Shown here: positions 20,802 to 61,005 of the stretch, in pieces | Position numbering within the stretch: position 1 is the stretch's first letter | How the letters are laid out: each line of letters opens with the position of its first letter | DNA from: an uncultured Nitrospiraceae bacterium | GTDB lineage: Bacteria; Nitrospirota; Thermodesulfovibrionia; UBA6902 | Length of the DNA: 61,005 nucleotides | NCBI GenBank assembly: GCA_964393845.1 | Contig: CAYMUX010000002.1 | Location: 4,741 to 65,745 of the forward strand | Direction: 5' to 3' | Notes under the pieces: generated by a model | What the model saw: the letters and a program-made list of their open reading frames with translations, nothing else | The model's database searches: none | What the model was told of the DNA's origin: nothing | Made by a program: the position numbers and the translations under genes

Positions 20802-21629
20802 TTGCAGATGGAAATAAACGTTCTTCTATTTGAGCTGGCGCTTACCTTTTATTTCATTGCAACAATTGCAGGTATCGCAGAGATTTTCCGGGGTAAAAAA
20901 ACCGCTTCGAAATTGGCGCTTTATCTTGCGGTGACGGGCTTTCTTTTTCATACCGCAAATATTATTGTCAGGTACGTTGAAGGCGGACATATCCCTGTCA
21001 CAAACATGCATGAGGCAACTTCATTCTTTTCCTGGTGCGTGCTGATATTGTTTTTTTTCCATGAATTCCGTTATAAACTCGGTCTGTTAAGCTCGTTTAT
21101 TATGCCGATAGTTTTTATCCTCATGCTCTCGTCCTCTATCTTCCCCAGGGAAATAAAGGCCTTAAGCCCTGTTCTCCAAAGCTACTGGTTCGGGATTCAT
21201 GTTATTTTAGCCTTTTTGGGCGATGCAGCTTTTGCTATGGCATGTGGGATAGGAATAATGTATCTCATGCAGGAACGCTATGTAAAATCAAAGCGCCTGG
21301 GGGGTCTGTTCCAAAAGCTGCCGAGCCTTCAGGTCCTTGACGAGATTAATTACCATCTCATTACTCTCGGTTTTCCTCTATTGACCTTTGCCATGATAAC
21401 CGGCGTAATATGGGCAAACTCTGCCTGGGGAACTTACTGGAGATGGGACCCCAAAGAGGTGTGGTCACTTATAACATGGCTTATTTATGCGCTTGTACTT
21501 CATCTCAGACTTACGGTCGGATGGCGCGGTAAAAAGGCTGCTATTCTCTCAATCGTCGGCTTTGCGATAATAATATTCGCCTTTTTTGGTGTTACTCTGA
21601 TCATGAAAGGACTTCATGTATTTATGTAG
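20802..21629 (+). CDS. ccsA: Cytochrome c biogenesis protein, System II (CcsA/ResC family)
   Basis: WWD motif GVIWANSAWGTYWRWDPKEVW, conserved His in WFGIH and LVLH; polytopic. Confidence 0.92.
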   Translation: MQMEINVLLFELALTFYFIATIAGIAEIFRGKKTASKLALYLAVTGFLFHTANIIVRYVEGGHIPVTNMHEATSFFSWCVLILFFFHEFRYKLGLLSSFIMPIVFILMLSSSIFPREIKALSPVLQSYWFGIHVILAFLGDAAFAMACGIGIMYLMQERYVKSKRLGGLFQKLPSLQVLDEINYHLITLGFPLLTFAMITGVIWANSAWGTYWRWDPKEVWSLITWLIYALVLHLRLTVGWRGKKAAILSIVGFAIIIFAFFGVTLIMKGLHVFM

Positions 21630-21631
21630 AA

Positions 21632-21709
21632 GGGGCCAAGGATTCGAGGAGCCCTGGGTTCCAGGGACAAGATAATTCCATCACTCGACCCCTTGAAACC
21701 TTGAACCCT
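21632..21709. repeat. Inverted arrays of degenerate 8-mers (GGRTTCRA / TYGAACCC type)
   Basis: ggggccaa ggattcga ggagccct gggttcca .. tcgacccc ttgaaacc ttgaaccc, between ccsA and hemA. Confidence 0.6.
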
Positions 21710-21722
21710 TACTTTATTTATT

Positions 21723-23006
21723 ATGAACATTCTAGTTGTCGGCCTTAATCATAAAACAGCGCCTATAGAGGTAAGAGAAAAAATAGCCTTTGACGGGCCA
21801 AAACTCGATCAGGCCGTAAACATCCTGAAAACATCTGATGTGATAAAAGAAAACATAATATTATCAACCTGCAATAGAGTTGAGATATACGCAGGGGTTA
21901 ATGAAGTCAATGCAGGGATCAAAGGCATTAAAGATTTTATCTCTGATTTTCATAAGGTGCCCAAAGACCTCCTGGATAAATCACTTTACATACATAAAGG
22001 GCAGGAGGCAATAAGGCACATGTACAGAGTTGCATCGAGCCTTGACTCGATGGTTGTCGGAGAGCCGCAGATACTCGGCCAGTTAAAAGATGCCTTTGAC
22101 TCGGCCCTGAAAAACAGGACTACGGGGGTTTACCTGAACAGACTGATGAGAAAATCAGTCTCCGTAGCCAAACGCATCAGGACAGAGACAAAGATCGCTG
22201 AAAGCGCTGTCAGCATTAGTTTTGCTGCCGTTGAACTGGCAAAGAAAATATTCGATGACCTTGCGACAAAATCTGTTATGCTTATCGGCGCCGGTGAAAT
22301 GGCGGAACTTGCAGCCAGGCATCTGATAAACAACGGCGTAAAAAACGTCTATGTAACAAACCGCACGACAGCGAGGGCGGAGGAGCTTGCACAGGAGTTT
22401 CACGGGAAGGTTATACTATTTGACAATTTTGTTCATGAATTATTTTATACAGATATTGTAATCTGCTCCACCGGGGCCCCCAACTACATATTAATGAAAG
22501 ATCATGTTCATAAGACAATGAAAGACAGAAAGCAAAAACCCATGTTCATAATCGACATATCAGTGCCAAGAAATATTGACCCTGAAATAAATGATCTGGA
22601 CAATGTATACCTGTACGATGTCGATAACCTCCAGGGGATTATCGACACAAATATTCAGGAAAGGGGCAAAGAGGCTGAAAAGGCCGAGCAGATCGTTGAT
22701 GAAGAGATCGGCTCTTTCCTGAAATGGACCGAATCCCTGACTGCAACACCGACCATCGTTGCGCTTCGGAACATGGCCGAGAAAATAAGAAAGACCGAGC
22801 TTGAAAAAACACTCAGTAAAATGGGCCCGATGGAAGAAAATAAAATAAAAGCGATAGAGCAGCTCACTGCCACTATTGTTAATAAACTCATCCATCCTCC
22901 AACTGCGGCGCTGAAGTCCGGGGAAGAGAATAAAGAAGAAATGCTGGATATAGTCCAAAAACTATTTAATTTAGAGATAGAGAGTGACAATAATGATAAA
23001 ACGTAA
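21723..23006 (+). CDS. hemA: Glutamyl-tRNA reductase
   Basis: GLNHKTAP, STCNRVE, SLDSMVVGEPQILGQ, IGAGEM, DISVPRNID. Confidence 0.97.
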   Translation: MNILVVGLNHKTAPIEVREKIAFDGPKLDQAVNILKTSDVIKENIILSTCNRVEIYAGVNEVNAGIKGIKDFISDFHKVPKDLLDKSLYIHKGQEAIRHMYRVASSLDSMVVGEPQILGQLKDAFDSALKNRTTGVYLNRLMRKSVSVAKRIRTETKIAESAVSISFAAVELAKKIFDDLATKSVMLIGAGEMAELAARHLINNGVKNVYVTNRTTARAEELAQEFHGKVILFDNFVHELFYTDIVICSTGAPNYILMKDHVHKTMKDRKQKPMFIIDISVPRNIDPEINDLDNVYLYDVDNLQGIIDTNIQERGKEAEKAEQIVDEEIGSFLKWTESLTATPTIVALRNMAEKIRKTELEKTLSKMGPMEENKIKAIEQLTATIVNKLIHPPTAALKSGEENKEEMLDIVQKLFNLEIESDNNDKT

Positions 23007-23958
23007 AATAGTTATCGCAACAAGGGGAAGCAAACTCGCTCTTTGGCAGGCCGGGTGGATCAAGTCCCTGCTCCTGGAAATAAATCCTGATTTTGATATT
23101 GAGCTGAACAAGATAAAAACGACGGGAGACAAGATTCTCGACGTCCCGCTTGCCCAGGTCGGCGGGAAAGGGCTTTTTGTAAAAGAAATTGAAGAAGCGA
23201 TGCTCAGGGGAGAGGCAGACCTGGCTGTTCACAGTATGAAGGACGTCCCGACTGATCTGCCCAAGGGCCTTCATCTTTCCGCAATCACGAAACGGGAAGA
23301 CCCACGGGATGCATTAATTGCAGGGAAGGGCATAAAGAGTTTTAATGATCTGCCCAGGGGAGCGAATATCGGTACAAGCAGCCTTAGAAGAATTTGCCAG
23401 CTGTTAAACCTGCGTCCTGACCTTAAGATCACACAGCTCAGGGGCAACGTCGATACAAGGCTCAGGAAGGTCGCCGAAGGTGAATTCGACGCCATCATCC
23501 TTGCCACAGCCGGCGTAAAGAGGCTCGGCTTTGCAGACAGGATTACGGAAAGACTGCCGGTTGACGTGAGTCTTCCTGCCATTGGACAGGGGGCGGTCGG
23601 AATAGAGTGCAGGGTGGATGATGTGTTTATAAATGACTTGCTGAAAAAATTGAATCATGAAGAGACATCTGTCTGCGTTAGGGCTGAACGGGCATTCCTG
23701 AAAAGGCTTGAAGGCGGCTGTCAGGTTCCTATTGCTGCTTACGCAAAATTAATAAATCCCAAATTATGTAAGGGCGTATTGCCATACGCCCCTACACTCA
23801 TGTTAGAAGGACTCGTCGGCAGTTTGGATGGCAAGACTTTAATTAAGGCCGGAATTGAAGGAAAGCCTGAAGAAGCCGAATCCCTCGGCGCTACTCTTGC
23901 GGAAAAACTTCTCTCTAAAGGCGCTAAAGAAATACTTGATGAGGTTTACGGACAATAA
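22993..23958 (+). CDS. hemC: Hydroxymethylbilane synthase
   Basis: ATRGSKLALWQ, GKGLFVKE, AVHSMKDVP, GTSSLRR, LEGGCQVPI; GTG 22984 is an alternative start. Confidence 0.97.
   Translation: MIKRKIVIATRGSKLALWQAGWIKSLLLEINPDFDIELNKIKTTGDKILDVPLAQVGGKGLFVKEIEEAMLRGEADLAVHSMKDVPTDLPKGLHLSAITKREDPRDALIAGKGIKSFNDLPRGANIGTSSLRRICQLLNLRPDLKITQLRGNVDTRLRKVAEGEFDAIILATAGVKRLGFADRITERLPVDVSLPAIGQGAVGIECRVDDVFINDLLKKLNHEETSVCVRAERAFLKRLEGGCQVPIAAYAKLINPKLCKGVLPYAPTLMLEGLVGSLDGKTLIKAGIEGKPEEAESLGATLAEKLLSKGAKEILDEVYGQ
23768..23795. repeat. GTAG-type REP-like palindrome, in-frame in hemC
   Basis: GTAAGGGCGTATTGCCATACGCCCCTAC (28 bp), read as CKGVLPYAPT, the same frame as the 3118 copy. Confidence 0.85.
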
Positions 23959-24002
23959 ATACGCATCTTGCCCTTTAACCAACCATTGAGCTATATTATC
24001 CT

Positions 24003-24674
24003 ATGCTTAAAATAATGCGGAGCCATAAATTCTTCACGGTATTCGTACTCGGTGCAATCACCATAATGATCTCTGTTGCCTTCATATTCTGGGGTATTGG
24101 ACCAAAAGATAATATTCAGAAGGCATATTTAGCCCAGATTGATGATGAGCGAATAACCATCGATCAATATTGGAGGGCATATGATAATGAATTCAAACGT
24201 CTCAAGGAACAAAATAAGAGCCCCGAAGACATCGAAAAGCTTAACCTTAAAGACAGGGTTATTGCCTCGTTAGTCAACAGGACGGTATTACTCAATGCTG
24301 CACGGAAAGCCGGAATAATAGTAACGGAAAATGAGCTTCAGGAAGCTATAATTAATACTCAATATTTCCAGAGAAACGGCGTCTTTGACATGGAAATATA
24401 CCAGAGGGCATTGAGATTTAACCGTCTCACACCCCAGACATTTGAAGATAGTGTAAGAAACGACATATTTATTTCCAAAATATCCAATTTAATCGGGGAA
24501 ACAGCAGAGCTCACATCAGAAGAGTTAACAATTCTCAATTCAATGAATGCAGCAAACAATGATCAGCTGCGGGCCATCTTTCGGTCTTCAAAGAGCAATC
24601 AGGCAATATTGGCTTATGTTGAAAGTTTCAAACGCCGGATGGTTATTAAGATTAACAGAGATCAAATATCCTGA
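24003..24674 (+). CDS. SurA N-terminal-domain periplasmic chaperone (PpiD-like, no rotamase domain)
   Basis: N-terminal TM ending FIFWGIG; YFQRNGVFDMEIYQRAL motif. Confidence 0.8.
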   Translation: MLKIMRSHKFFTVFVLGAITIMISVAFIFWGIGPKDNIQKAYLAQIDDERITIDQYWRAYDNEFKRLKEQNKSPEDIEKLNLKDRVIASLVNRTVLLNAARKAGIIVTENELQEAIINTQYFQRNGVFDMEIYQRALRFNRLTPQTFEDSVRNDIFISKISNLIGETAELTSEELTILNSMNAANNDQLRAIFRSSKSNQAILAYVESFKRRMVIKINRDQIS

Positions 24675-25399: not shown

Positions 25400-26293
25400 A
25401 TGAAAAAATTGATAATTACAATTTTAGTGATAATTCTTCTGCCAATCCTGGTATCTGCGCAAGAAAAGACTAACAATGCAAATAGTATATCTGAAGATAC
25501 TGATATACATTATACCGGAAAGTACTGTGAGGCATGCCATGAAATAACTCCTAAGAAAGGCGGAGAGAAATTCTTAAAATTCGGTGGTGATTTTGGTCAG
25601 CTATGTAAGTGCCATGGATATACGCCCGGCACATATATACATCCCGTAGGTATAGTCCCTTCTGAAGAAAAAAAAGCGGCCATTCCCAAAGATTTTCCAT
25701 TAGAGGACGGCAAGCTCTCTTGTATCACTTGCCACGATATTTATTTGCAGTGCCAGATAAATCCGCAATTCAAAGTCCTTAACAGGCGATTTTTGAGAGG
25801 AGCGCCGTATGTAAGCCGCACGACTCTCTGCTTTAGGTGCCATGATGAAAAAAAATACACCATGCTTGACCCCCATAACCAGTTAACTGAAACAGGAGCT
25901 GTCATTATAGATAAATGCCTGTACTGTCACAAAGAAAAACCTGATGAAAAAACTGCAACTTTTAAAGAAGTACATCTAATCGGCAATCTTGAAGTGCTGT
26001 GTTTCAGATGTCATTACAAACAAAGCCAGTTTCACCCTATAAATGCTAACCACCTGGTTACACCTAACCCTACGATTGTAGAAAATATGAAGTCTACGGA
26101 GAATAAATTCGGCATAATACTTCCCCTAAATTATGAGGGAAAGATTACCTGTCCTACCTGTCATAATCCTCACGAAAGGGGCGTAATTCCGAGGGACAGA
26201 GCAAGCGCAAAAGGCGCAAGCGAAAAGTACAGGCTTAGATTGTCAGAAGTAAATCTCCAAATTTGCGTCGCCTGCCATAAAGACAAGTTCTAA
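25400..26293 (+). CDS. Periplasmic multiheme cytochrome c (7 CxxCH plus 1 contracted CKCH)
   Basis: Signal peptide; CEACH, CKCH, CITCH, CFRCH, CLYCH, CFRCH, CPTCH, CVACH. Confidence 0.92.
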   Translation: MKKLIITILVIILLPILVSAQEKTNNANSISEDTDIHYTGKYCEACHEITPKKGGEKFLKFGGDFGQLCKCHGYTPGTYIHPVGIVPSEEKKAAIPKDFPLEDGKLSCITCHDIYLQCQINPQFKVLNRRFLRGAPYVSRTTLCFRCHDEKKYTMLDPHNQLTETGAVIIDKCLYCHKEKPDEKTATFKEVHLIGNLEVLCFRCHYKQSQFHPINANHLVTPNPTIVENMKSTENKFGIILPLNYEGKITCPTCHNPHERGVIPRDRASAKGASEKYRLRLSEVNLQICVACHKDKF

Positions 26294-27720
26294 AAGGTGC
26301 GCCTGGTTGTTGGCGAGTAATCCGCATTGGTAACCGAAGAGCCGTGATAATGGCAGTCCGTGCAAACTTTCTTGTTCCAACTAGAGGTACACCCCGTACC
26401 GCCCCCGCTACTATGACATGTCCCGCACATATTAGGGGTATACGGGCGATCAGTATTACAGCCCTGATTTGAGTGGTGCGTTATGTAGTAGTGGTCTGCC
26501 TGGCAGCCCCCGTCGATCTCCAGGTCATCGTTATGGCATTTGTCACAAAGATATTGCCAGTTCGTAGTTGAAAAAGCGCCGATACTTCCGGCAAGCGCGC
26601 CACCGTTTACCTCTTCTCTTGTCAAAAATACATTCGGTGAGCCATGCGGTTCATGGCAGTCAGTACATGACAGCACCTTGCCCAAACCTGATGCGCCGGA
26701 TGGATAAGGGGCATCCCCGCATAGGCTTACATCGGCATTCCCTTTTCCGTGCTTCTCATTATTCCAGTCAATGGTCCTCAAATTTCTTCCGAGTGTGGTG
26801 CTGTAGATTGTGTTTGTTGTATTATGGCAGTCTGTGCAAAAGGTAACATAATCCGTTAAGTTGGACCCATCCTGTGTAGCTGAACCATCCGGCTCATAAA
26901 TAACCGTTGAATTATATCGATACGGGGACTGGTAACTGAGGGTATAATTATTCATTCGCTCCGCGGCAACATCACCCCAAAGTCCCCACGCATTATTATC
27001 TTTGCTGTTATGCAGACTTGGAAGAGAAACAGGCCAGCCTCTGCTTCCCGATGTATGAGGGTCCCTTTGCGCGCTGTGTGGATTATGGCATGCTGCACAC
27101 GGGTTTGAATCGGCTGTAAATCCCCATTTTCCGGTAATAAATGTTTTGATATCCGTCAGCTTATGAGATGAACCGACTGTAGAGCTGCAGTTTGAGACCG
27201 GACTGCCTGTCTCATTTATAAAGGAGAACGCCGAAAGGATACTGACGGGGCATGTGATAGCAGTATCCCCGCCGGCCTTGTAACTATAGTTATAGTTATT
27301 AAAAGCCGTGGCCTGATGTGAACCGGCGCTTGTATGGCATTGAAAACAAAAGTCGTCAGTCTGGCTGACATAATTATCATAAAATAACGTATAGTTCTCA
27401 GGCCCCGGTACCGGCGCAGGCTCAGTGCCATCAATGCTATTGTGCTGTTCATGACAATGGCCGCAGAGGCCTTTAGTATAATTAGGATCACTTGCGGGAG
27501 GATTATAATCAGCAGCGCTTCTTTTGACTCCATATGAAGAACTGCCGTGAGCGGAATTCAGATAAGGCCCGGCATCTACCGATTTAACATAAAAGACTGC
27601 AAACAAGGCAAGAAAAACTAATGCCTGCAATAATATCCTTAAGTTATCAGATGCTTTTAAGTTCACTGTTTTCATTATAGTTACCACGTTATTTCGCCTT
27701 CTTGTCTTCACTGGTCCCAT
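26290..27720 (-). CDS. Exported octaheme cytochrome c, Ser/Thr/Asn/Gly-rich
   Basis: 8 CxxCH motifs plus 6 other Cys; signal ends VDA-GPY; ATG 27675 is an alternative start. Confidence 0.92.
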   Translation of the reverse strand: MGPVKTRRRNNVVTIMKTVNLKASDNLRILLQALVFLALFAVFYVKSVDAGPYLNSAHGSSSYGVKRSAADYNPPASDPNYTKGLCGHCHEQHNSIDGTEPAPVPGPENYTLFYDNYVSQTDDFCFQCHTSAGSHQATAFNNYNYSYKAGGDTAITCPVSILSAFSFINETGSPVSNCSSTVGSSHKLTDIKTFITGKWGFTADSNPCAACHNPHSAQRDPHTSGSRGWPVSLPSLHNSKDNNAWGLWGDVAAERMNNYTLSYQSPYRYNSTVIYEPDGSATQDGSNLTDYVTFCTDCHNTTNTIYSTTLGRNLRTIDWNNEKHGKGNADVSLCGDAPYPSGASGLGKVLSCTDCHEPHGSPNVFLTREEVNGGALAGSIGAFSTTNWQYLCDKCHNDDLEIDGGCQADHYYITHHSNQGCNTDRPYTPNMCGTCHSSGGGTGCTSSWNKKVCTDCHYHGSSVTNADYSPTTRRTF

Positions 27721-27723
27721 TAC

Positions 27724-28821
27724 CTAATTTCTTGATGTATGACATACATTACACCCCGACAATGCAGTTGACAGAGTAGCGCTCTTATAGTCCCACCGCA
27801 GCATATCAGCGTAGTTAGTAGCATGTGCGGAATGACAGGACAAACACATTACAATTGCGCCTGTATCACCTGCCCCGCCTGGAACTACTGTGGCGCTGCT
27901 TAAAGCTGGAACCGTAGGCCTTGCAACAGGCGCCGTTGTGCTGTAACTTGTATATGCTGCATATTCACCGCTTCCAGGCAGGTTCATATCAGTCGGATGC
28001 CTGGTAAATGGAGAACTTGTGCCGCCTATCGAGTCTGTAACATGAAACAGTCTATGGCATGTTCCGCAGAACCCGCTAATCGTCTTATTTGAAGGCCGAA
28101 CTCCCTCAGGCAAATGGCAGATACTACAGCTGCCGCTATAAGTCATGGGAGTAGTGGCCCCAAAATACTCATTATGATCCGAGGCGCTTTTAGTTTTTTC
28201 CCAGTCCGAATCTTCCAGTCCCTTAACGTAATCAAGGAATCTGTAACTGTTATAAACCTGATCTGCTGTATTAAGCGGTCCATCAACATTCTTATGGTGA
28301 GACCCTTTTATCCCTCCTCCGGATTTACGGACCCCGTGACAACCCGCTATCCCGGCACAGGTAATATTTATTCCAATACTATTAGGATCATGATGACCGG
28401 GCGGCGAGGTAAGCGTATTCTCGAGGTTACCAAAATCAATAACATTATGTCCTTTGGCATCGGACCCGGCTCCACCCTTGCCTCCACCAACTACATAGAT
28501 AAAATTGCCGCCTGCCAAATCACCTGATACATCATTGTGGTAAACTTGCGGCGTATTATTGCCGTTTATTGATGCAATCATGGCCGAACCGCCCCCGGCA
28601 TGGCATCCTAAACAGGTGCCGCGAAGGAGGTACTCTTTAGACGTTGATGTTTCCGAACCATATAAGTACGACACCATGGCAGCCCCATTCTGGCTGTTAT
28701 GCATGGTGTGGCAATCGCTGCAATGTCCGGTTATCACGGCTGGAACTTTAACTGAAAAGACGAATACTAACAGGATAATTACTGGAAGGGATATAAATTT
28801 TATCAGTTTTATCCTTATCAA
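27724..28821 (-). CDS. OmcS-like extracellular multiheme cytochrome (6 CxxCH plus CX5CH)
   Basis: CHTMHNS, GGNF, KGHNV, YRFL, RHP, CLSCHSAHA..MLRW and terminal CNVCH match the OmcS motif order. Start placed at TTG after AAGGAG; the track start is GTG 28857. Confidence 0.85.
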   Translation of the reverse strand: MIRIKLIKFISLPVIILLVFVFSVKVPAVITGHCSDCHTMHNSQNGAAMVSYLYGSETSTSKEYLLRGTCLGCHAGGGSAMIASINGNNTPQVYHNDVSGDLAGGNFIYVVGGGKGGAGSDAKGHNVIDFGNLENTLTSPPGHHDPNSIGINITCAGIAGCHGVRKSGGGIKGSHHKNVDGPLNTADQVYNSYRFLDYVKGLEDSDWEKTKSASDHNEYFGATTPMTYSGSCSICHLPEGVRPSNKTISGFCGTCHRLFHVTDSIGGTSSPFTRHPTDMNLPGSGEYAAYTSYSTTAPVARPTVPALSSATVVPGGAGDTGAIVMCLSCHSAHATNYADMLRWDYKSATLSTALSGCNVCHTSRN

Positions 28822-28868
28822 AATTGCGTATATCTCCTTTGATATTATAAATAGCACCTAATATATTA

Positions 28869-28885
28869 AGCAATAATGATGCCAA
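28869..28885 (-). promoter_or_regulatory. Sigma54 promoter of the OmcS-like gene
   Basis: TTGGCATCATTATTGCT, a near-consensus -24/-12 element. Confidence 0.75.
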
Positions 28886-28944
28886 GAACTTAAGCAGGAA
28901 TTAGTCAACATATTGACTGAGAATAATAAATTTACAGCCATATC

Positions 28945-30219
28945 TTACATCTTATGACACTGAATACATAGCGCCCTCTTTCTGTCATGAGTAAGCAGAT
29001 AGTCAGCATTGGCTGAATGCATGCTATGACATGAATTACAGGTCAATGTCCGGCCATTTCGAGGATCTTTGACATCAGCCCCAAGCGGATGGGTAATCTT
29101 ATGTTGAGACGCATGACATCTGGCGCAAAGCGGAATTTCATCTGCCCTGTAATTAAGCGGCCGGGAAGAATGCGCCGGGATATGACATTCAAAACATTTT
29201 CTGTTTTTAATCGGCTCGCAATTTATTGACTTTAAAGAACGTTCCATCGCAGCTGTCCTTCTTTCAGTGCTCTCATGACACTTAATGCAAAGGTTTGATT
29301 CCTTCTTTGTTAAATTCTTTTGACTCGACGCATGATGATCATGACACACAGTGCAAGGATTTTTAGCATCCCTAACATGAACATCGTTATCTACGTATTC
29401 ATATTTTGACGTACTTCTTTTATGGCAGTTGAAACATAAATCCGCACCTTTTATCTTGGTGGTTATGTCCCGTTGTGATTTGATGGGATTATGGCATTCT
29501 TCACAATTCTTATCCAGAAAGACCTTATGACCGAAGGGGCCGAGAAGACCTTTGTCAAATGAACTGTGACCGGAATGACATGTAGTGCAATCTATGTCTG
29601 CCACTACAGAAGCGATCGAAACATTTCCAACCTTACATTTAGGCCCGTGGCATTTTTTACATAGCTCCTTCGGCGGAGAAATCAGCAGATTGTCTACAGG
29701 AGAGGCATGTGCATTGTGACAGGATGAACACTCCCCTTCTTTAAAAGGACGACATATATACGGTTTCTTAAACTGGACGTTTAAATCTTCATGACAATTC
29801 AGGCAGAGGCTCTTTTCTTCTTTTAACAGCAGATACTTGTTTTCTCCGCTGTGAGGAAAATGGCATTTCGTACAATTATTTCCCCTGAGAGCGCCATGGA
29901 CTATGGTATTTTCAATAAGTTTTCTAATGTCATCATGGCATCCTTTGCAGATAGAATCAACTTCATCAATCATCAGGCCTTTTATTTTACTTACATGAGA
30001 ATTATGACAGGTGATACACTTACCTTCCTTAAACAGAAAATGGACATACTGATTTTTTAATCCCTTTTCCAGTTCTTTATGACATCCAAAACAAAGGGCA
30101 GGCACCTTAGTCTTTAAACCAACCTGTGCAAATGCAGTATTATCGAAGCACAAAATACTGAACACAGCTAAACATAATGAAATCAAACCGTTTCGAATTA
30201 GTATGGATAAAATATTCAT
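28945..30219 (-). CDS. 16-heme cytochrome c (paired-CxxCH repeats)
   Basis: 16 CxxCH counted; signal peptide ends AFA. Confidence 0.95.
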   Translation of the reverse strand: MNILSILIRNGLISLCLAVFSILCFDNTAFAQVGLKTKVPALCFGCHKELEKGLKNQYVHFLFKEGKCITCHNSHVSKIKGLMIDEVDSICKGCHDDIRKLIENTIVHGALRGNNCTKCHFPHSGENKYLLLKEEKSLCLNCHEDLNVQFKKPYICRPFKEGECSSCHNAHASPVDNLLISPPKELCKKCHGPKCKVGNVSIASVVADIDCTTCHSGHSSFDKGLLGPFGHKVFLDKNCEECHNPIKSQRDITTKIKGADLCFNCHKRSTSKYEYVDNDVHVRDAKNPCTVCHDHHASSQKNLTKKESNLCIKCHESTERRTAAMERSLKSINCEPIKNRKCFECHIPAHSSRPLNYRADEIPLCARCHASQHKITHPLGADVKDPRNGRTLTCNSCHSMHSANADYLLTHDRKRALCIQCHKM

Positions 30220-30259
30220 GAGTTACATCCTTTGTATTATACCTGTTGCCTTTTTTATG

Positions 30260-50685: not shown

Positions 50686-50799
50686 ACTCCCCGCCGCAAG
50701 CGGACGGGGTATCAAGGGATTAATTTGAAAAATCCCCCCTGCCCCCCTTTTTCAAAGGGGGGTAATTATAAGGAACCGCCGCAAAGACAGCGGGGTATT
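50686..50799. repeat. Composite palindromic element: CCGCCGCAA..CGGGGTAT repeats flanking a CCCCCTTT..AAAGGGGG half-copy
   Basis: Hairpin 50686-50712, inner element 50728-50763, degenerate repeat 50775-50799. Confidence 0.7.
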
Positions 50800-50805
50800 A
50801 AAAGA

Positions 50806-52603: not shown

Positions 52604-53764
52604 TTGAAGATACTTATTGTTACACCTTTTTTTCCGCACGCCGGGGTCCATCATGCCGGCGGTAAATTTATATTTGAATTAATCACGGGATTGTCCCGAA
52701 AGCATAACATATATCTTTTTTCCAGAATTGAACCAGGTGAAATGAAATTCGTAAAAAACATGGAAGGTTTTTGTGATAATATTAAACTATATAAATTCAA
52801 GACACCGCGCAATTCAAACCCTTTGAGACCCTTCCTCATCATTATGTCATACCTCTGTCTGGCTGTCAGGGCAAACCGGTTTATCCGGGAAAACAACTTT
52901 GATATAGTACAGGTGGAACATGCGGAAACAGGCCTCTTAATTAAAAAGCAAAAAAATGCAAAACTCCTACTGGATGCCCATGATGTAATATCAAAACCTG
53001 CTGAGAGAAGGTATCGTTCTTCAAAGGGGCTCATTCGAAAGTCTTCAGACTGGCTGAAATGGCAGATTGTCAGGAGAATGGAAGTTTATATAGCCGGGAA
53101 ATTCGATATGATCTTTACCCGCTCTCAAATAGATAAAGACATTATCCTCGGTCTCTGTTCAAACCTGAACGTCAGCGTAATCCCTCATCCGGTCCGGAGC
53201 TGCAAACCGTCAACAAAATTTTCAAAAGAAGAAAATATAATACTGTTCGTCGGGGCCATGAGCAGAGACGTAAACATCAAGGCCGCCATTTTTATATATA
53301 ATAAGATTCTTCCATTGATTCAATACGAGGTACGTGACGTTAAGATTTATATTGTCGGCCATAACCCGCCGCGGGAAGTTAGAGAGTTGGCCGATAAATC
53401 CGATAACATCGTCGTTACAGGCTTTGTGGATGATGTGGCGCCTTATTACCAACGGGCCGCGATTTTTGTCAGCCCGATATTTATTGGAGGAGGCATTATC
53501 GCAAAAAACATCGAGGCCATGTCATACGGCCTGCCGGTAGTAACTACGGCTATAGGTAATGAAGGGATTGAGGCCGTACCCGATAGTGACCTTATGATAG
53601 CTGACACTGAAAGTGAGTTCGCCAGGGCAATTATCTGTCTTTTGAAAAATCCCGGACTGAGAGAACAGATCGGGGGAAAAGGGAAATCGTATGTTGAAAA
53701 GAAGTTCAACGTCGATTTAGTATTGAGTAATATCGAAAGAAGCTATGAGACATTGTTTAAATAG
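52604..53764 (+). CDS. GT4-like glycosyltransferase
   Basis: KILIVTPFFP, TGFVDD, KNIEAMSYGLPVVTT. Confidence 0.88.
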   Translation: MKILIVTPFFPHAGVHHAGGKFIFELITGLSRKHNIYLFSRIEPGEMKFVKNMEGFCDNIKLYKFKTPRNSNPLRPFLIIMSYLCLAVRANRFIRENNFDIVQVEHAETGLLIKKQKNAKLLLDAHDVISKPAERRYRSSKGLIRKSSDWLKWQIVRRMEVYIAGKFDMIFTRSQIDKDIILGLCSNLNVSVIPHPVRSCKPSTKFSKEENIILFVGAMSRDVNIKAAIFIYNKILPLIQYEVRDVKIYIVGHNPPREVRELADKSDNIVVTGFVDDVAPYYQRAAIFVSPIFIGGGIIAKNIEAMSYGLPVVTTAIGNEGIEAVPDSDLMIADTESEFARAIICLLKNPGLREQIGGKGKSYVEKKFNVDLVLSNIERSYETLFK

Positions 53765-53769
53765 TTAAC

Positions 53770-54813
53770 ATGACTGACATAAGAAAAAAAGATATTACAG
53801 TTTCGGTCATCATTCTCAATTACAATGGGATAAGTTATGTTGAGGAATGTATGGAATCTGTTTTAAATCAGACTTTCAGGGATAAAGAAATTATTGTTAT
53901 CGATAACGGCTCTTCGGATGGTTCCGGAGAATTATTAAAAAAAATGGCATCTTCAGAAATCATATATATCGAAAATAAAGATAACCTCGGCTTTGCATCC
54001 GGCAATAATATAGGTATAAGAAGGGCAAAGGGCAGATTTATCGCTCTATTGAATAATGATGCCGTTGCCGATGAAAAGTGGCTGGAGAATTTGGTATCCG
54101 CTGCATTGAAGTCAGACAGCAGTTACGGTTCCTGGGCGTCTAAAATTCTTTTCTACGATAATCGGAAAACCATCGATACAGTTGGACACCTTATATATCC
54201 AGACGGGCTTAACAGAGGAAGGGGTAAAGGTGAAGAGGATACGGGACAATATAATGGAGAAGAAGAGGTCTTTTTCCCCAGCGGATGCGCTGCCTTATAT
54301 TCAAAAAAGATGCTTGATGAAATAGGTTATTTTGATCCCGACTTCTTTGCATACGGTGATGATACTGACATAGGACTCAGGGCAAGACTTGCGGGATGGA
54401 AATGTCTTTATGTACCGGGGTCAGTAGTTTACCATCATTCTTCGGGAACAACGGGCAAATATTCCCCGCTTAAGGCTTATCTTGTGGAGAGGAACAGGTT
54501 TTGGATATTAATTAAATATTTCCCTTTGAAGTATATTGTAATTAGTCCTGTATACACTTTCTTGAGATTTATTCTGCAAGCTTATGGAGTTCTTGCGCGT
54601 AAAGGATCTGCCGGCAGGTTCGTGGAAGAGTTTTCCGGAATAAGTCTTCTGCGTGTACTTATAAAAGCTTACATAGACGCATTCAGGAAGTTGCCCCTGA
54701 TGCTCAGAAAGAGGTCCGCCATGAAAAAGCTGGTCAAAACTTCAAATAAGGATTTTTCTTTCTGGCTTAAACGATTCAGAATACGCGCCGTGGAGATTGC
54801 TCTTAAGGATTAG
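53770..54813 (+). CDS. GT2 glycosyltransferase
   Basis: VSVIILNYNG, IDNGS, LLNND, YGDDTD. Confidence 0.9.
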   Translation: MTDIRKKDITVSVIILNYNGISYVEECMESVLNQTFRDKEIIVIDNGSSDGSGELLKKMASSEIIYIENKDNLGFASGNNIGIRRAKGRFIALLNNDAVADEKWLENLVSAALKSDSSYGSWASKILFYDNRKTIDTVGHLIYPDGLNRGRGKGEEDTGQYNGEEEVFFPSGCAALYSKKMLDEIGYFDPDFFAYGDDTDIGLRARLAGWKCLYVPGSVVYHHSSGTTGKYSPLKAYLVERNRFWILIKYFPLKYIVISPVYTFLRFILQAYGVLARKGSAGRFVEEFSGISLLRVLIKAYIDAFRKLPLMLRKRSAMKKLVKTSNKDFSFWLKRFRIRAVEIALKD

Positions 54814-54825
54814 ACTTTTCAGACT

Positions 54826-55548
54826 ATGAATAACGAATACAGTAAAATTATAGTTATTATACCCGCATATAATGAAGAAGCATCCATACTGAAAGTCATA
54901 ACTGACATTAAACTTATAGTCCCTTACGCTAAAATCGTTGTTATTGATGATGGGTCGACTGATAATAGCGCCGGTACAGCTTTACAGGCCGGTGCGGTTG
55001 TAATAAGCCATCCTTTTAATCTCGGATATGGCGCAGCCCTTCAAACAGGGTATAAGTATGCCTTGAGAAAGGGTTATGATATCGTTGTCCAGCTTGACGG
55101 CGACGGGCAGCATGACCCTCATAATATTCCGGACGTCCTTCAGCCGATACAAGATAACAGTGCAGATGTAGTAATAGGTTCAAGATTTTTAGGGAAAGAT
55201 GTTTATAAAATTCCCTTTCTGAGAAAAACCGGGATGAGGATATTTAGTTTTATCGCATCTGTCATTATGAAGCAGCCGGTCACTGACTCAACATCCGGCT
55301 ATCAGGCTTTGAACAGAAATGTTTTTACGTTTTATTCGGACAGGCGATATCCCGTAGACTTCCCTGACGCTGACGTTCTTATAATGCTGAAACGGTCCGG
55401 GTTCAGAATAAAAGAGGTCCCCGTAACAATGCATGGTTCTCATAAATCCATGCATTCAGGATTAAAACCTCTTTATTATATTTTTAAAATGATTCTCTCG
55501 ATATTGTTGACGGTATTGAGGAAAGAAAAAAATATGGAGGAGGCCTGA
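54826..55548 (+). CDS. GT2 polyprenol-phosphate glycosyltransferase (DPM1-like)
   Basis: IIPAYNEE, DDGSTD, NLGYGAA, DGDGQH, VIGSRF, DSTSG. Confidence 0.88.
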   Translation: MNNEYSKIIVIIPAYNEEASILKVITDIKLIVPYAKIVVIDDGSTDNSAGTALQAGAVVISHPFNLGYGAALQTGYKYALRKGYDIVVQLDGDGQHDPHNIPDVLQPIQDNSADVVIGSRFLGKDVYKIPFLRKTGMRIFSFIASVIMKQPVTDSTSGYQALNRNVFTFYSDRRYPVDFPDADVLIMLKRSGFRIKEVPVTMHGSHKSMHSGLKPLYYIFKMILSILLTVLRKEKNMEEA

Positions 55549-55549
55549 T

Positions 55550-55906
55550 ATGCAGTTAATGGATATACCGATTCATCAAAAGATTTTTGCCTTAATAACA
55601 TCAGTAGTTATATTTGTCTTTATTATCGAAATGCTGAGGAGGAGAAAGCTTAAAGAAGAATATTCGTGGTTGTGGATATTGACCGGTATAGGAATGATAA
55701 TCCTTGTTTTTTGGTATAAGCTCCTTGTAATAATTACAAATCTCATTGGCGCCGTGACTCCGACAACTACATTGTTCCTTTTTTCAAACCTTTTTCTTCT
55801 TGTTTTATCCATTCACTACTCCATTATAATATCCAAATTAACGCATCAGATTAAGGACGTTAGTCAGGAAATTGCTCTATTAAAAATTGAGATGAAAGAA
55901 AAATAA
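55550..55906 (+). CDS. DUF2304-family small membrane protein
   Basis: Three TM helices, RRRKLKEEYS.LW, QEIALL tail; follows the DPM1-like GT2. Confidence 0.8.
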   Translation: MQLMDIPIHQKIFALITSVVIFVFIIEMLRRRKLKEEYSWLWILTGIGMIILVFWYKLLVIITNLIGAVTPTTTLFLFSNLFLLVLSIHYSIIISKLTHQIKDVSQEIALLKIEMKEK

Positions 55907-55916
55907 ATTTCAGCTT

Positions 55917-57896
55917 TCATTTTCTCCCGGTTTCAAAGAGACTGGCCTTTTGAAGATGTTCTTCCGCCTTGCCGTGCAGACCAATCTTTGAATATGCAAC
56001 GCCCAAGTTATAATGCGCATTGGCATAATCAGGTTTTAGTCTTATAGCATTTATATATTCTGTAATGGCGCTGTTTATGTTTCCATTCAAATAGTATGTC
56101 AGCCCCAGATTGTAATATGCTTCAACGTAATCCGGATTTATTGCAATTGCATTCTTGAAATACTTTACGGCCGTATCGAGTTGGCCTTCTTTTACATAAA
56201 TAATGCCGAGGTTATAGTGCGCCCTGGCATGGCCGGGATTTATATCAATTGCCTTACGAAAATACTCTGTCGCCTTATCAAGATGTCCCTTCTCCATGTA
56301 TATTATGGCGAGATTGTTATATGCTTTATCATAATCTGCCTTTATAGTAATTGCCCTGTTAAAGGAATGAACTGCCTTATCATATTGTCCCTTCCGCGCA
56401 TAGGCAAATCCGAGATTATAGTGGGCCTTAGCATAGTCAGGTCTTAAGGCAACTGCCTTACTAAGATAATAAACAGCATTATCCGGCTGACCTTTCTCAA
56501 TATAGGCATCTCCGAGATTTGTTAATGCTATTACATTATGAGGACTCTTCTCTACAACATCGTTCCACAGAGTAACCCCGTCCTTCCATACGGAGTTTCT
56601 GGCATATGTGGAAGCAGACAGTATTACAATTATAAAAACAAAAAACGGAGCAACGGCTGCTTTAATATGTGGGAATTTATCCTTGAGTTTATCTGCCGCA
56701 ATAAAAACAGCAGTCGTTATTGCAATAAAGGCCCCGGCTGACGGGAGATAAACCCTGTGCTCAAATATTACATGCAATATGGGGATAATGCTTGACTCTA
56801 CGGACAGAGTCACAAAAAACCAGCATATACCAAAGGATACCAGTCGTAAATTCGGGTCCGAATACCATGAACGTTTTGTCCCGCTGGAAAAATCGGGAGA
56901 AGCCTTCTTTCCAACGGCGTAAAGAATATAGACAGCAATACATGATACAGTCAATAACAATATAAAAGACAAGAAAACATTTATGTTAAAAAAAGAGTTA
57001 TATATCGGATAATCATAGAGAAGATTTTGATTTACCGGCAGAAATATCAATCTTATGTATGTAACTATGACCCTGCATTGCGTATAAAAATAGTCCATTC
57101 TTGATAGTTGTGTCTCAAGCTTCGTTACCTCACCAACATCGCCTATTACTTCTCCAACAGGCTTGTTAATATCTATAAGACTTAATGGAATAATCAGCAT
57201 AGTCAGAAGAAGCGGAACAAGAATCAACAATCGCTTCCTGATCTTTCCTTCAAAAAAAATTAATTCATAAAGACCGGCCATAACCGGCAGGGTAAACGCA
57301 ATGCTCTTTGTCTTCATCGCAAGTATTGCGGAAACAACGGATATGAAATAAGAGACCCAAAAAATTCTGGTATCGGCTTTTGTTATCTGGATAAGTCTTG
57401 ATTTTACATACATGACAAGTGAGAGAAGATAAAACATGGTTGCAAGTGACGCGAGTCTCTGAACAATATATGTAACTGCCTGTGTCTGTAAAGGATGGGC
57501 AACAAAAAGGAGGGCTGAAAAAAGAGCGATTAGATTCGTTTGGAATTTATAATCAACAATACGATTTATTACCGAAGTCTTTAACGTAAAAATAACGAGA
57601 TAGTAGACAAGGACAGCATTTATGAGATGAATCATAAGATTAAAAACATGATATCCGGTGACATCCAGACCGTGCATTTTGTAATTCAGTGCAAAAGTCA
57701 AATAACTGATATATCGTGTATTAAAAAACTCGTAGTTTGAAGAAAAAGGTTGAGCAAAATTATTTAGATCTTTAATAACAGCGTTCTCTGAAATATTATT
57801 TATGTCATCAAATTGAAACGGGACATTAAAAGTATTTGAATAAACTGCAAGGCCGAGGAATACAATTAATAATATATTAACAGCATGTTTATTCAT
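55917..57896 (-). CDS. TMTC-like GT-C membrane glycosyltransferase with C-terminal TPRs
   Basis: PFQFDD acidic loop, HPLQTQAVTYIVQR, EHRVYLPS, RNSVW, about 6 TPRs. Confidence 0.85.
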   Translation of the reverse strand: MNKHAVNILLIVFLGLAVYSNTFNVPFQFDDINNISENAVIKDLNNFAQPFSSNYEFFNTRYISYLTFALNYKMHGLDVTGYHVFNLMIHLINAVLVYYLVIFTLKTSVINRIVDYKFQTNLIALFSALLFVAHPLQTQAVTYIVQRLASLATMFYLLSLVMYVKSRLIQITKADTRIFWVSYFISVVSAILAMKTKSIAFTLPVMAGLYELIFFEGKIRKRLLILVPLLLTMLIIPLSLIDINKPVGEVIGDVGEVTKLETQLSRMDYFYTQCRVIVTYIRLIFLPVNQNLLYDYPIYNSFFNINVFLSFILLLTVSCIAVYILYAVGKKASPDFSSGTKRSWYSDPNLRLVSFGICWFFVTLSVESSIIPILHVIFEHRVYLPSAGAFIAITTAVFIAADKLKDKFPHIKAAVAPFFVFIIVILSASTYARNSVWKDGVTLWNDVVEKSPHNVIALTNLGDAYIEKGQPDNAVYYLSKAVALRPDYAKAHYNLGFAYARKGQYDKAVHSFNRAITIKADYDKAYNNLAIIYMEKGHLDKATEYFRKAIDINPGHARAHYNLGIIYVKEGQLDTAVKYFKNAIAINPDYVEAYYNLGLTYYLNGNINSAITEYINAIRLKPDYANAHYNLGVAYSKIGLHGKAEEHLQKASLFETGRK

Positions 57897-58054
57897 GCTC
57901 TAATTGTGCACTAATAAATATTAAGCTTGCAAGTTTGGAATAAAGGCAGTTCATGAAAAGCCTTGACATGCTTGATTCTACAGGCATGCCTTTTTTATAT
58001 GCATTTTTGGGGTTAATATATATTTCAGCGATAAAGAGGCAGAATTTAAAAACA

Positions 58055-59907
58055 ATGAAAAAAATCTTTCAATCCATTTCTGTCTTGTTGCTTCTGGTCA
58101 TAGTTTTTCTAACTTACGCAAATACTGTCGACGATCTTGACCTCTGGTGGCATCTTAAAGATGGACAGCGAATATACGAAACTCATGCTAACCCTCAAAA
58201 AGATGAATTTGCTTTTACAACATATATTCCCGAAAGCATAAGCAATATTGGCAAAACAGAGGTCAACCCATCCGAACTCCCTTCAGAAAAAGTAAAGCGC
58301 TTCTTATTTATCGCACTTAAAACCAGTTGGCTGGGGCAGCTTGGTTTTTACGTTATCTATCTCTTAGGCGGTTTTAAAGGGATTGGCATTTTTAAATCAA
58401 TTATCTTCATCTCTTCCTATGCAGTTCTATACCTGACAATGCTCAAAAGGGGCGCCGGCCACTTCAGTTCACTTTTGGTTCTGAGTCTCATAGCACTTAT
58501 AGGAATTGACTTCAACTACACTAGAACACAGCTATTTTCTTACCTTCTGTTCTCCTGTACACTATACGCTCTTTACGACTTCAGAAAAGGCGGCAAATGC
58601 ATTTATTTTCTTCCAGTGCTTATGCTCATATGGGCAAACCTTCACGGAGTATTTATTTTAGGCGTCCTGATAACCATTGCCTTCGCTTTTTCTGAATTTA
58701 TTAAATATATACTGAATAATAAATTTAACATATCAGGAATTCAACCTATCTCAAAAAGACAACTACAAACATTAATACTAATTTCCTTCGCTTCTTTTTT
58801 GTTAAGTTTATTAAATCCAAATACTTATAAAACCTTTTTGTTCCCATGGATTATGAAAAGCAGTGTATTTGGAACTATTATTGAAGAGTATCGCAACCCG
58901 ATGTTCTATGAATATCATGCTTACTGGTTCATGCTTGCTTTGGTAGTCGTTTCCATTCTTATTTGTACCGCAAAGAAACGCATGGACTTGAATGAGTTGT
59001 TCCTTTCGCTTATACTCATCCCTCCGTCTTTGACTGGCCTTAAATACATCATTTTTTTGCATTGGGAACAGGGGTATTTCTAGCATATTCGTTAACATGT
59101 ACAGGGTCTAAGATTAAAGAATGGAGCCTTTATAGAAAACTTCTTGATAATAAATTAATTTCAAAACTGGAGGCGAAAAGTTTTTTTTCATTATTACCGG
59201 CAGCATTAGCTTTCATGTTTCTCATTAAAATTGCAGTAAGCGGTGTGGCGCTGAAATTTGATATGCGCGAAAAAAGATATCCTTCAAATGCAGTGGAATT
59301 TATTCAAAAAAACAGAATCCCTGGCAATATGTTCAATCTGTATAATTCAGGGGGTTATCTCATCTGGTCACTTTATCCGGATTATAAAGTTTTTATCGAC
59401 GGCCGAAATCTGAATGAAACGGCTTATTTCCATTATAATCAAATAATCGGGTCCTCAATAGGCAAAGACCCGGGAATGCCCTTATGGAAAAGGCTTCTGA
59501 ATGCCTATGATGTAAATTTTATTCTAACTACTGCGGTTTCACCAATGTGAAATATAATTCCTCTCGTGGGCAGTCTTTATCAGGACAGTGAGTGGGAATT
59601 AATTTATGAAGATGGCAAATTAATGATTTTTTTAAAAGCCTCACAAAACAATTATGATTTTATTCATCAGCGCTACCTTTCAAAAGAGAAGATATACGAT
59701 GAGATTATTAGTGAGTGCAACCTGGGAATAGCAGAAACACCTGCAACATGGGGATATTATGAGACGCTCGGTTTCATATATATGAAGCAAAACCGTTTTA
59801 CAGATGCAGCAATAATGTTTCAGAAATATCTGACCATGAATCCAAACAATGCGAACGTGCAATATTATTATGACTTACTGAAAAATTATATGGGGAACCC
59901 TCGTTAA
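58055..59907 (+). pseudogene. GT-C-like polytopic membrane protein with a C-terminal TPR, split by two lesions
   Basis: DLDLWWHL, WANLHG, GGYL..FIDGR; frameshift in T7 (59052-59058) and in-frame TGA at 59548. Confidence 0.82.
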
Positions 59908-59958
59908 AGAGTCGATGTTATGAGATAATACATTTCCTATCAGGTTATCAAAATAAAT

Positions 59959-59997
59959 AAAAAAACCCGGCTTGGTTTTATAGTCCAGCCAGGTCTT
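59959..59997 (-). terminator. Intrinsic terminator of the second OmcS-like gene
   Basis: ACCTGGCTGG / CCAAGCCGGGT stem followed by a T-run. Confidence 0.7.
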
Positions 59998-60021
59998 TAA
60001 AATATTTTCTAAAGTAGGAAT

Positions 60022-61005
60022 TTAATTTTTTGTTGTATGGCAGGTAAAACAGCCCCCTGAACCACCGCCGCCTGCTACCATTGTGTTGTAATCCCATCTC
60101 AACATATCTGGATAATTGGAAGCATGCGCCACATGACAGGAAAGGCACATGACAATAGCGCTAGTTACACCAGTGGTACCGGGATTAACAATAGCGCTGA
60201 TGCCGGAGGGGACAGTATCCCGCGCCACAGGCGCTTCAACGCTGAATTGATTGCTGCCTGTTGGGTTATAATTTGCATATTCCCCGGTGCCTGGCAAAAT
60301 CACATCGGTCGGATGTCTGGTAAACGGCGAACTATTATCACCGCCTATTTTTTCTAAAATATGAATGTTCTGGTGGCATGTGGCGCAGAACATGCTCATC
60401 GTATGGTTTGTAGGCTGTACACCATTGCCGGTATGACAGGAAGCAAGACTGCAACCGCCGCCAAAATCAATTGGGGATGTAGCCCCGAAGTACTCATTAT
60501 GTTCATTTGAATCAAAGTTCTGCCATTTATTAGCGCCTGCTGTATTTTCATAACCATAAACACCCATTAGGAATCTGTAACTGTTTTGAGGCGTATCAGC
60601 AACATCGAGCTTCCCGTCTACATTGTTATGATGAATCCCTTTGAAAGCCGGAACAGGTTTTTTACGAATGCCGTGACAGCCGAAATTCCCGTAACAGGTA
60701 ATATCTACTCCGATATCATTGGGATCATGGTGTCCCGGAGGCTCTGTCAATGTACTTTCAGGGTCACCGATATCTGTCACATTATGCCCCTTGGCATCAG
60801 ATGCGCCGCTGCCCTTTGTTCCCAGGATATATGCAAAGTTGCCGCCTGCTAAATCAGCGCCTGCAGCGGTATGATAAACCTGAGGGATCTCGCTGGCGCC
60901 TATGGTTACAATTTTAGAAGTGCCGATTCCGTGACATCCGAGGCAATCGCCTCGTGTAAGTGACTTATAAGGACCAGTGCCTTTCCACGGCTTACCGGAC
61001 GCTCC
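60022..61005 (-). CDS. Second OmcS-like multiheme cytochrome, 5' end outside the window
   Basis: Frame open to the edge: [56 protein letters not shown]; paralog of 27724-28821. Confidence 0.88.

Follow-up and report, generated by a model that had tools for sequence, protein, structure and literature searches.

Gene content of the locus

The stretch of 61,005 nucleotides considered here (the window) lies within contig C2 (CAYMUX010000002.1) of the genome of an uncultured Nitrospiraceae bacterium, which comprises 3.15 Mb in 152 contigs and is 91.8% complete. Gene calls were based on the open reading frame (ORF) listing, on counts of the heme-binding motif CXXCH and on scans against Pfam and NCBIfam. 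They revealed a run of 12 co-oriented genes on the minus strand, spanning positions 43288 down to 26290 with intergenic gaps of 3-119 bp, and a further gene at 60022. Both resemble the genes at the omcS locus of Geobacter sulfurreducens, where the nanowire protein OmcS is encoded together with the osc assembly genes. In gene order the run consists of:

42302-43288, minus strand: NHL-repeat propeller, 328 aa, first gene of the run (PF01436, E 1.5e-14)
41190-42275, minus strand: NHL-repeat propeller, 361 aa, a tandem duplicate with the N-terminus of the YVTN gene
39574-41163, minus strand: OscD-like YVTN/lactonase beta-propeller lipoprotein, 529 aa (PF10282, E 5.3e-15)
37246-39516, minus strand: OscE-like outer-membrane beta-barrel, 756 aa (no Pfam match; large beta-barrel in the AlphaFold model)
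36262-37224, minus strand: OscF-like lipoprotein, copy 2, 320 aa, LSGC lipobox (PF05643, E 6.3e-5, under the cut-off)
35640-36251, minus strand: OscF-like lipoprotein, copy 1, 203 aa (top match of the osc lipoprotein of ~200 aa, E 1e-24)
33916-35520, minus strand: OscG-like protein, 534 aa, two CsgG/GNA1162-like domains (PF05643, 28.6 bits, cut-off 25.9; CsgG, E 0.0022)
32247-33878, minus strand: PpiC-type peptidyl-prolyl isomerase (PPIase) lipoprotein, 543 aa, OscH-like foldase (PF13145, E 6.8e-27)
30260-32227, minus strand: OscI-like 26-heme cytochrome with DmsE/MtrA-type repeats and N-terminal hydrophobic helix (26 CXXCH; TIGR03508, E 1.4e-97)
28945-30219, minus strand: OscJ-like 16-heme cytochrome (16 CXXCH)
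27724-28857, minus strand: OmcS-family cytochrome, 377 aa, putative filament subunit (6 CXXCH and one CX5CH, CAGIAGCH)
26290-27720, minus strand: octaheme cytochrome, 476 aa (8 CXXCH), 3 bp downstream of the OmcS-like gene

The gene apart from the run is:

60022-61005, minus strand: second OmcS-family gene, running past the window end (392-aa open frame in the genome)

A first-pass annotation made from the sequence letters had listed a pair of OmcS-like genes, an octaheme gene, the run from the NHL to the 16-heme gene and a ccsA-hemA-hemC group to its left, and all of these genes and their positions were confirmed.

OmcS-family proteins

The genome encodes six OmcS-like paralogs, including the copies of the window, of which the one at 60022 and the one at 27724-28857 share 55% identity. 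A profile of the six paralogs matched OmcS in the PDB (6ef8_A, E 1.6e-17, 67 bits) over profile positions 24-340 of 349. Single-sequence PDB searches with the three smaller cytochromes of the window gave no OmcS match.

A scan of species-representative genomes resulted in 595 pattern matches and at least 491 confirmed relatives, and the conservation counts given throughout refer to the best 80 of these. An alignment of 77 relatives, built from the best 80 loci with the Geobacter types included, was the basis of an AlphaFold2 model of the subunit, which reached a mean predicted local distance difference test score (pLDDT) of 85.5 and a predicted template modelling score (pTM) of 0.81. OmcS (6ef8_A) was the sole match of this model in the PDB at E <= 0.001 according to Foldseek (E 2.7e-6; template modelling score, TM, 0.43/0.40), and the window subunit is thus predicted to adopt the OmcS fold.

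The window subunit and OmcS have the N-terminal motif CHTMHNS in common. Its second histidine, H53, corresponds in the alignment to residue 16 of the solved OmcS chain 6ef8; all 6/6 paralogs have it, as do at least 90% of the 77 aligned sequences. What these data show is the residue and not the bond. Invariant in all 77 sequences are the five OmcS CXXCH motifs and the histidines H137, H174, H287 and H345. According to a structure paper, one of the twelve histidine ligands, on heme 5, is supplied by the neighbouring subunit. The first-pass annotation had made its filament reading depend on the OmcS fold and on the histidine shared between subunits, and the model and the alignment agree with it on both points. 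A complex prediction with two copies (residues 41-377) scored 0.00, gave no answer and is used neither for nor against filament formation.

A FastTree phylogeny of 140 OmcS-like proteins separated the Geobacter-type hexahemes (18) from the other 122 with a support of 100, and the proteins of the window fell outside this whole clade. Most upstream copies lay outside a clade (9 rows, support 99) that was formed by the copies encoded downstream of the 16-heme gene. The gene at 60022 was sister to the copies located directly upstream of the NHL gene in relatives (support 94).

Two tandem OmcS-like genes at the end of contig C68 (16832-19255) group with the distal upstream copies of relatives. This contig may join the end of C2 beside the gene at 60022, giving three upstream copies as in the related locus L011.

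Accessory genes and the osc cluster

As far as stated in the available parts of the Geobacter literature, the osc operon contains omcS (GSU2504), omcT and oscC (GSU2501) as well as oscI (GSU2495) and oscJ (GSU2494), and roles have been assigned to OscD in morphology, to OscE, OscF and OscG in secretion and to OscH in folding. The accessible text of a preprint describes GSU2495 as "~70 kDa/26 heme", and an eight-gene block, GSU2500-2493, is reported to occur always with a GSU2501-type OmcS-like gene (bioRxiv 10.1101/2025.11.06.686851, as far as available).

For a direct comparison 301 genomes (the class of a Pelovirga locus) were searched by profile, 84 of them matched, and ten loci around the weaker Geobacter-type hits were taken as reference. 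The hexaheme protein encoded at 2382-3773 of locus L091 matches solved OmcS with E 7e-268 and ~95% identity, and L091 is therefore a genuine omcS locus. Its OmcS gene is followed by two more hexaheme genes and then by genes encoding a propeller, a barrel, a lipoprotein, a CsgG-like protein, a PPIase and a 26-heme cytochrome. The order of hexahemes, propeller, barrel of ~720 aa, lipoprotein of ~200 aa, CsgG-like protein, PPIase, 26-CXXCH cytochrome, 16-CXXCH cytochrome and NHL protein was found in 8/10 reference loci. Hence the 26- and 16-heme cytochromes which the first-pass annotation had assigned to the osc cluster are indeed found there, in the Geobacter-type loci as well as, for GSU2495, in the preprint as far as accessible.

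The 26-heme gene of L091 (16918-18910) is broken into three overlapping frames with 9, 12 and 5 CXXCH motifs, which suggests frameshifts or sequencing errors.

The D-E-F-G-H-I-J order is identical in the window and in L090-L093 and L095-L098. Each block gene of the reference loci had the corresponding window gene as its top query in BLAST. When the D, E, F, G, H and I proteins of L091 and L096 were searched against the whole genome by reverse tblastn, all top hits were located inside the window cluster, and those for E, G and H were the sole hits. Conversely, the PPIase, the CsgG-like protein and the YVTN protein of the window hit best inside the osc locus in 3/3 genomes. Four components in all gave reciprocal best hits. 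The PPIase (32247-33878) and the osc-locus PPIase are reciprocal best hits, as are the OscD-type propellers (reverse E 4e-31 and 4e-34), and the CsgG-like protein (33916-35520) is reciprocal with the osc locus and had no other hits. The 26-heme protein shares 36-38% identity over ~650 aa (E ~1e-150) with the product of the 26-CXXCH gene of Geobacter-type loci and is its reverse best hit. The 16-heme gene occupies the same position as the 16-CXXCH gene of these loci, while its best hit as OscJ is blurred by repeats in common with the 26-heme gene. The two lipoproteins encoded at 35640-36251 and 36262-37224 share 42% identity and are both related to the two domains of the protein encoded at 33916-35520. 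Homology thus shows that the window encodes counterparts of OscD, OscE, OscF (in two copies), OscG, OscH, OscI and OscJ in Geobacter order with OmcS-family genes beside them, and the accessory genes, which the first-pass annotation had taken for osc homologs, follow the order of the genes located after omcS, omcT and oscC in L091.

The AlphaFold2 model of the barrel protein (pLDDT 87.8) shows ~30 long strands and an inserted domain at about residues 287-410. All of its 279 Foldseek hits were large outer-membrane barrels, and the highest TM among solved chains belonged to MtrB (6r2q_B, 0.39/0.43). This match raises the main rival explanation, a trans-outer-membrane porin-cytochrome conduit that forms no filament, in which the barrel would sheathe the MtrA-like 26- and 16-heme cytochromes while the OmcS-like and octaheme proteins act as monomeric surface reductases as in MtrCAB. 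The fit of the 26-heme protein to the DmsE/MtrA family model (E 1.4e-97) is in line with such a conduit, as is the fact that OmcS is, as far as the available source states, the sole polymeriser known among its Geobacter paralogs. We consider it unlikely, however, since the osc accessory genes tied to folding, secretion and morphology of the nanowires are all present and in order, since the histidine aligned with OmcS residue 16 is conserved, and since the filament protein OmcS is the only strong structural match of the subunit model. Furthermore, to our knowledge conduits of the MtrB type need neither a PPIase nor CsgG-like lipoproteins nor propellers.

The propeller genes contain a tandem direct repeat (40992-43215) with a spacing of 1112 nt. 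The two NHL proteins (41190-42275 and 42302-43288) are 99.6% identical over 281 aa, and the former begins with 60 aa that share 88% identity with the start of the YVTN lipoprotein. The repeat arose by a very recent duplication or else is an artefact of the assembly.

Assessment of the locus

Taking into account that homologs in the same order and reciprocal hits connect the window with a genuine omcS locus, we conclude that the region 26290-43288 together with the gene at 60022 probably represents an osc-type locus for OmcS-type filaments in Nitrospirota. The first-pass annotation had proposed a nanowire secretion and electron-conduit system, and this reading is supported in its core by the osc homology and order; filament formation by the window subunit is what we infer from them.

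Several observations weigh against this conclusion. A filament, its secretion and its expression are here predictions from the genes. The heme count of seven and the CX5CH site depart from OmcS, the blastp identity of the OmcS-family protein of the window to Geobacter OmcS-type proteins is only 24-29%, and a single-sequence phmmer search with it against the PDB gave no match. The assignment of OmcS residue His16 as the ligand given to the neighbouring subunit is reportedly that of Wang et al. 2019. Among the 80 related OmcS-like loci 40 contain none of the nine block genes within the flanks examined. The homology of the barrel protein to OscE is based on local BLAST matches (E 7e-25 and 4e-26), as forward searches of three whole genomes with this protein gave no hit (0/3). 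Finally, no NHL gene follows the 16-heme gene of the window at the OscK position, a letter assigned from gene order; two NHL genes are located upstream instead, and the best hit of the OscK-like protein in the genome lies outside the window on contig C122.

The C122 region (7362-8601) encodes a fragment with 3 CXXCH motifs and an NHL protein, which are 53% identical to the C-terminus of OscJ and to the OscK-like protein of L096. This value is far above the 20-38% of the osc genes in the window; the genes may have been transferred, or the contig may be foreign to the bin.

Seven heme sites in the window subunit

The subunit encoded at 27724-28857 has seven heme sites, six CXXCH motifs and CAGIAGCH, and differs in this from the hexaheme OmcS with its six CXXCH motifs; the first-pass annotation had likewise spoken of divergent seven-heme subunits. 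Five of the six OmcS CXXCH motifs are kept, while 74/77 relatives carry C[AS]GxxGCH in place of the third. An additional motif is located between the third and fourth OmcS sites (residues 244-248 of the window subunit). Of the 67 subfamily rows 51 possess it, 27 of them in the form CXXCH and the others in the form CX3-7CH. His156 (window numbering) is present in 90% of the rows with the extra motif and in 19% of those without, the rows being related sequences and not independent observations. This co-variation fits a real seventh heme with bis-histidine ligation.

Within the papers searched there was no description of a seven-heme or CX5CH subunit of the OmcS family, although osc clusters of Nitrospirota or homologs with seven hemes may already be included in the phylogenetic survey of Shen et al. 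2025 (Cell Chem Biol 32:239). It is conceivable, if rather doubtful, that the C[AS]GxxGCH proteins constitute a large, structurally unsolved OmcS branch whose nanowires contain seven hemes in every subunit. The additional heme (244-248, His156) would then lengthen or branch the heme chain relative to OmcS, and several paralogous subunits (six here) would share a single osc machine, with the downstream subunit and the octaheme protein as base or tip.

Other cytochromes of the locus

The octaheme gene lies beside an OmcS-like gene in 17/80 related loci. A profile of the octaheme protein found no close solved relative in the PDB (best match 3ubr_A, E 9.7e-5 over ~57 residues), and an Atlas search with the protein gave generic multiheme clusters only. 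A further cytochrome gene converges on the run:

25400-26293, plus strand: convergent cytochrome, 297 aa, 7 CXXCH, signal peptide (weak DmsE-family similarity)

This gene is conserved in 9/80 related loci. Its product had been considered as an OmcS-like protein, but does not resemble OmcS in sequence. The octaheme protein and this 7-heme protein are additions particular to this branch.

The pairing of the octaheme gene with the downstream OmcS-like copy, 3 bp apart in the window, could point to a mixed or switchable filament, in which the six OmcS-like paralogs and/or the octaheme protein share one osc machine and the downstream copy is a base, cap or minor subunit. The presence of six paralogs and one osc-type block in the genome and the separate clade of the copies downstream of the 16-heme gene would be compatible with this. 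OmcS filaments are known as homopolymers, as far as the accessible source states, and we regard a mixed filament as improbable compared with an osc-type locus for OmcS-type filaments as such.

The N-terminal 159 aa of the 26-heme protein comprise a hydrophobic helix and a four-heme stretch, likewise in two Geobacter-type homologs. The NrfH model TIGR03153 aligns end to end with these 159 aa, though weakly (32.6 bits, cut-off 134), and higher scores were obtained with DmsE-type models. The sequence hints at a membrane-anchored electron entry point, and an NrfH-type quinol dehydrogenase module at the start of the protein is a tentative reading.

Flanking heme-synthesis and glycan genes

The genes on both sides of the cytochrome run are the following:

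20802-21629, plus strand: ccsA-like gene (PF01578, E 8.7e-50; WGTYWRWD motif)
21723-23006, plus strand: hemA (Pfam)
22984-23958, plus strand: hemC (Pfam)
20802-24674, plus strand: the ccsA-like gene, hemA and hemC with a SurA_N-like gene, housekeeping neighbours (Pfam)
44137-55548, plus strand: glycan genes encoding a Wzm/Wzt ABC transporter, radical SAM proteins, methyltransferases and glycosyltransferases (Pfam)
43289-60021: segment of 16.7 kb with glycan and TPR genes between the second OmcS-like gene and the NHL gene

The first-pass annotation had counted heme supply and glycan genes as part of the system, and this was not supported. Genes hemA and hemC were each detected near an OmcS-like gene in 1/80 related loci, the closest relative, and their functional linkage was rejected on this count. 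The glycan genes had no syntenic counterpart in the 80 related loci, where only scattered weak hits were obtained, and a functional linkage was rejected for them as well (0/80 loci in synteny).

In relatives an OmcS-like gene directly adjoins the NHL gene where the window has the glycan block. Since the gene at 60022 is sister to these NHL-adjacent copies, the 16.7-kb segment fills what is a simple junction elsewhere, and it is probably an insertion outside the system. Both borders of the segment are bridged by exact contigs of metagenome run X1; as this run may be the sample of origin, the bridging is not independent support.

With the glycan genes set apart, a polysaccharide or curli-like secretion apparatus that merely adjoins the cytochrome genes is very hard to sustain. 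The adjacent Wzm/Wzt and glycosyltransferase genes, the weak CsgG/GNA1162 hits and an Atlas cluster of the barrel whose automatic name is that of a PEP-CTERM-associated outer-membrane protein might be taken to indicate it. However, the lipoproteins and the barrel travel with the OmcS-like, 26-heme and 16-heme genes across phyla, and the glycan genes do so in synteny in none of the 80 loci.

At 50730-50763, within the annotated start of the methyltransferase ORF 50680-51501, a G/C hairpin (C-run, T/A loop, G-run) was detected. Its contig depth ranges from 100 to 2000 in four metagenome runs, and 24 near copies exist in the genome. It looks like an interspersed repeat of the REP type (repetitive extragenic palindromic), and the true start of the methyltransferase ORF is probably located downstream of it.

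Positions 9600-20031 of the window constitute a defence island, in which a type III restriction enzyme (9600-12806) is followed by a YhcG/PDC-S02 PD-(D/E)xK nuclease (12813-13862), a type III methyltransferase (13859-17023) and a DrmD-like SNF2 helicase (17080-20031). Positions 1-8517 encode a Cache/HAMP histidine kinase, a molybdopterin-binding protein, MoaA, a TPR protein and ComEC. An Rfam scan at the gathering threshold gave 0 matches and a tRNA scan 0 genes.

Distribution, host and habitat

The best 80 of the at least 491 relatives are led by metagenome-assembled genomes (MAGs) of Nitrospirota/Thermodesulfovibrionia with up to 68% identity. In 30/80 loci at least five of the nine block genes are located within 10 kb; these loci belong to Nitrospirota, Thermodesulfobacteriota and Thermosulfidibacter. 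In the Nitrospirota relatives one to four OmcS-like genes are usually followed by NHL, YVTN, barrel, two lipoproteins, CsgG-like, PPIase, 26-heme, 16-heme, a further OmcS-like gene, octaheme and the convergent 7-heme gene.

The non-Geobacter host proposed in the first-pass annotation is supported by the nearest named relatives, which are Nitrospirota/Thermodesulfovibrionia MAGs, one of them with hemA at 81% identity. This Nitrospirae MAG (L073) encodes ccsA, hemA and hemC at 85, 81 and 77% identity in the same gene order. Furthermore, 39 ORFs of the genome contain at least four CXXCH motifs. The host is not Geobacter but a cytochrome-rich member of the Nitrospirota, probably of the class Thermodesulfovibrionia. 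Calls of "OmcS" by FeGenie in Thermodesulfovibrionia have been reported in one paper, according to its available part. DNA of this genome occurs in rock and groundwater metagenomes: four rock runs from one study and a single groundwater run each contained 0.2 or more of the sampled words. The same search of sequencing runs brought up no RNA run.

An OmcS-family gene that belongs to the CX5CH branch (39% identity) is located on a 5.8-kb contig (L086) labelled Candidatus Methanoperedens, an archaeal bin. The archaeal placement may be a binning error.

Proposed mechanism and implications

If the roles of the components are transferred from the work on Geobacter, the subunits would be exported by the Sec pathway, receive their hemes in the periplasm and be folded by the lipoprotein PPIase. 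They would then pass through, or be mounted on, the large barrel with its ring of lipoproteins, and polymerise head to tail outside the cell, where the N-terminal H53 would complete the heme coordination in the next subunit. The DmsE/MtrA-like 26- and 16-heme cytochromes would deliver electrons across the periplasm to the filament base, and the propellers may serve filament shape or anchoring. The filament could be used for mineral reduction, for electron uptake or for exchange between cells.

OmcS nanowires and the osc assembly genes have been studied in Geobacter, and wires in other phyla rest largely on gene surveys. The locus described here is a clean test case outside Geobacter, as it combines a cytochrome-rich subsurface Nitrospirota host and all accessory classes with an altered heme count and a non-canonical heme site. 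If the branch polymerises, cytochrome nanowires would occur in deep-subsurface Nitrospirota related to sulfate reducers, a natural seven-heme variant would be available for conduction studies, and nanowire makers could be predicted from an OmcS-like gene next to an osc block. Without polymerisation, the role of the osc block would be wider than OmcS assembly.

Comparison with known systems

The three lipoprotein-type genes of the window have weak profile similarity to CsgG/GNA1162/LpoB-like lipoproteins. They differ from curli CsgG in scoring at or below the family cut-offs, in the lack of curli subunit genes and in their cytochrome context.

With MtrCAB (PDB 6r2q) the locus has in common a large outer-membrane barrel beside MtrA/DmsE-like multiheme cytochromes. 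However, MtrAB combines the 26-strand porin MtrB with the decaheme MtrA, whereas the barrel model of the window has ~30 strands and an inserted domain and the cytochromes have 26 and 16 hemes; the PPIase, the CsgG-like lipoproteins, the propellers and an OmcS-fold protein are additional to MtrCAB. The general plan of a filament cytochrome with a large barrel and a propeller lipoprotein is also that of OmcE-type loci, as far as described in the available text of bioRxiv 10.1101/2025.10.22.684050.

The hexahemes of the GSU2501 (OscC) type are uncharacterised OmcS relatives likewise tied by synteny to the secretion block, and it has been proposed that they make up an unknown wire or else are ancestral (bioRxiv 10.1101/2025.11.06.686851, in the part available). 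The proteins of the window differ from them in their position outside the Geobacter-type clade (18 rows, support 100) and in carrying the CX5CH site and the seventh site.

The OmcS/osc system of G. sulfurreducens itself (PDB 6ef8/6nef) shares with the window the OmcS fold, five of six CXXCH motifs, the CHTMHNS motif and the gene order from D to J. The window differs in its phylum, in the subunit identity of 24-29%, in having seven heme sites and in the CX5CH motif at the third OmcS site. It furthermore contains a subunit gene downstream of the 16-heme gene followed by the octaheme gene, a duplicated OscF-like gene and NHL genes upstream instead of at the OscK position, and its upstream subunit gene is parted from the block by the 16.7-kb glycan segment. 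The locus is a member of the published "widespread" osc/OmcS kind, in a distinct and apparently unsolved seven-heme branch with a rearranged gene order.

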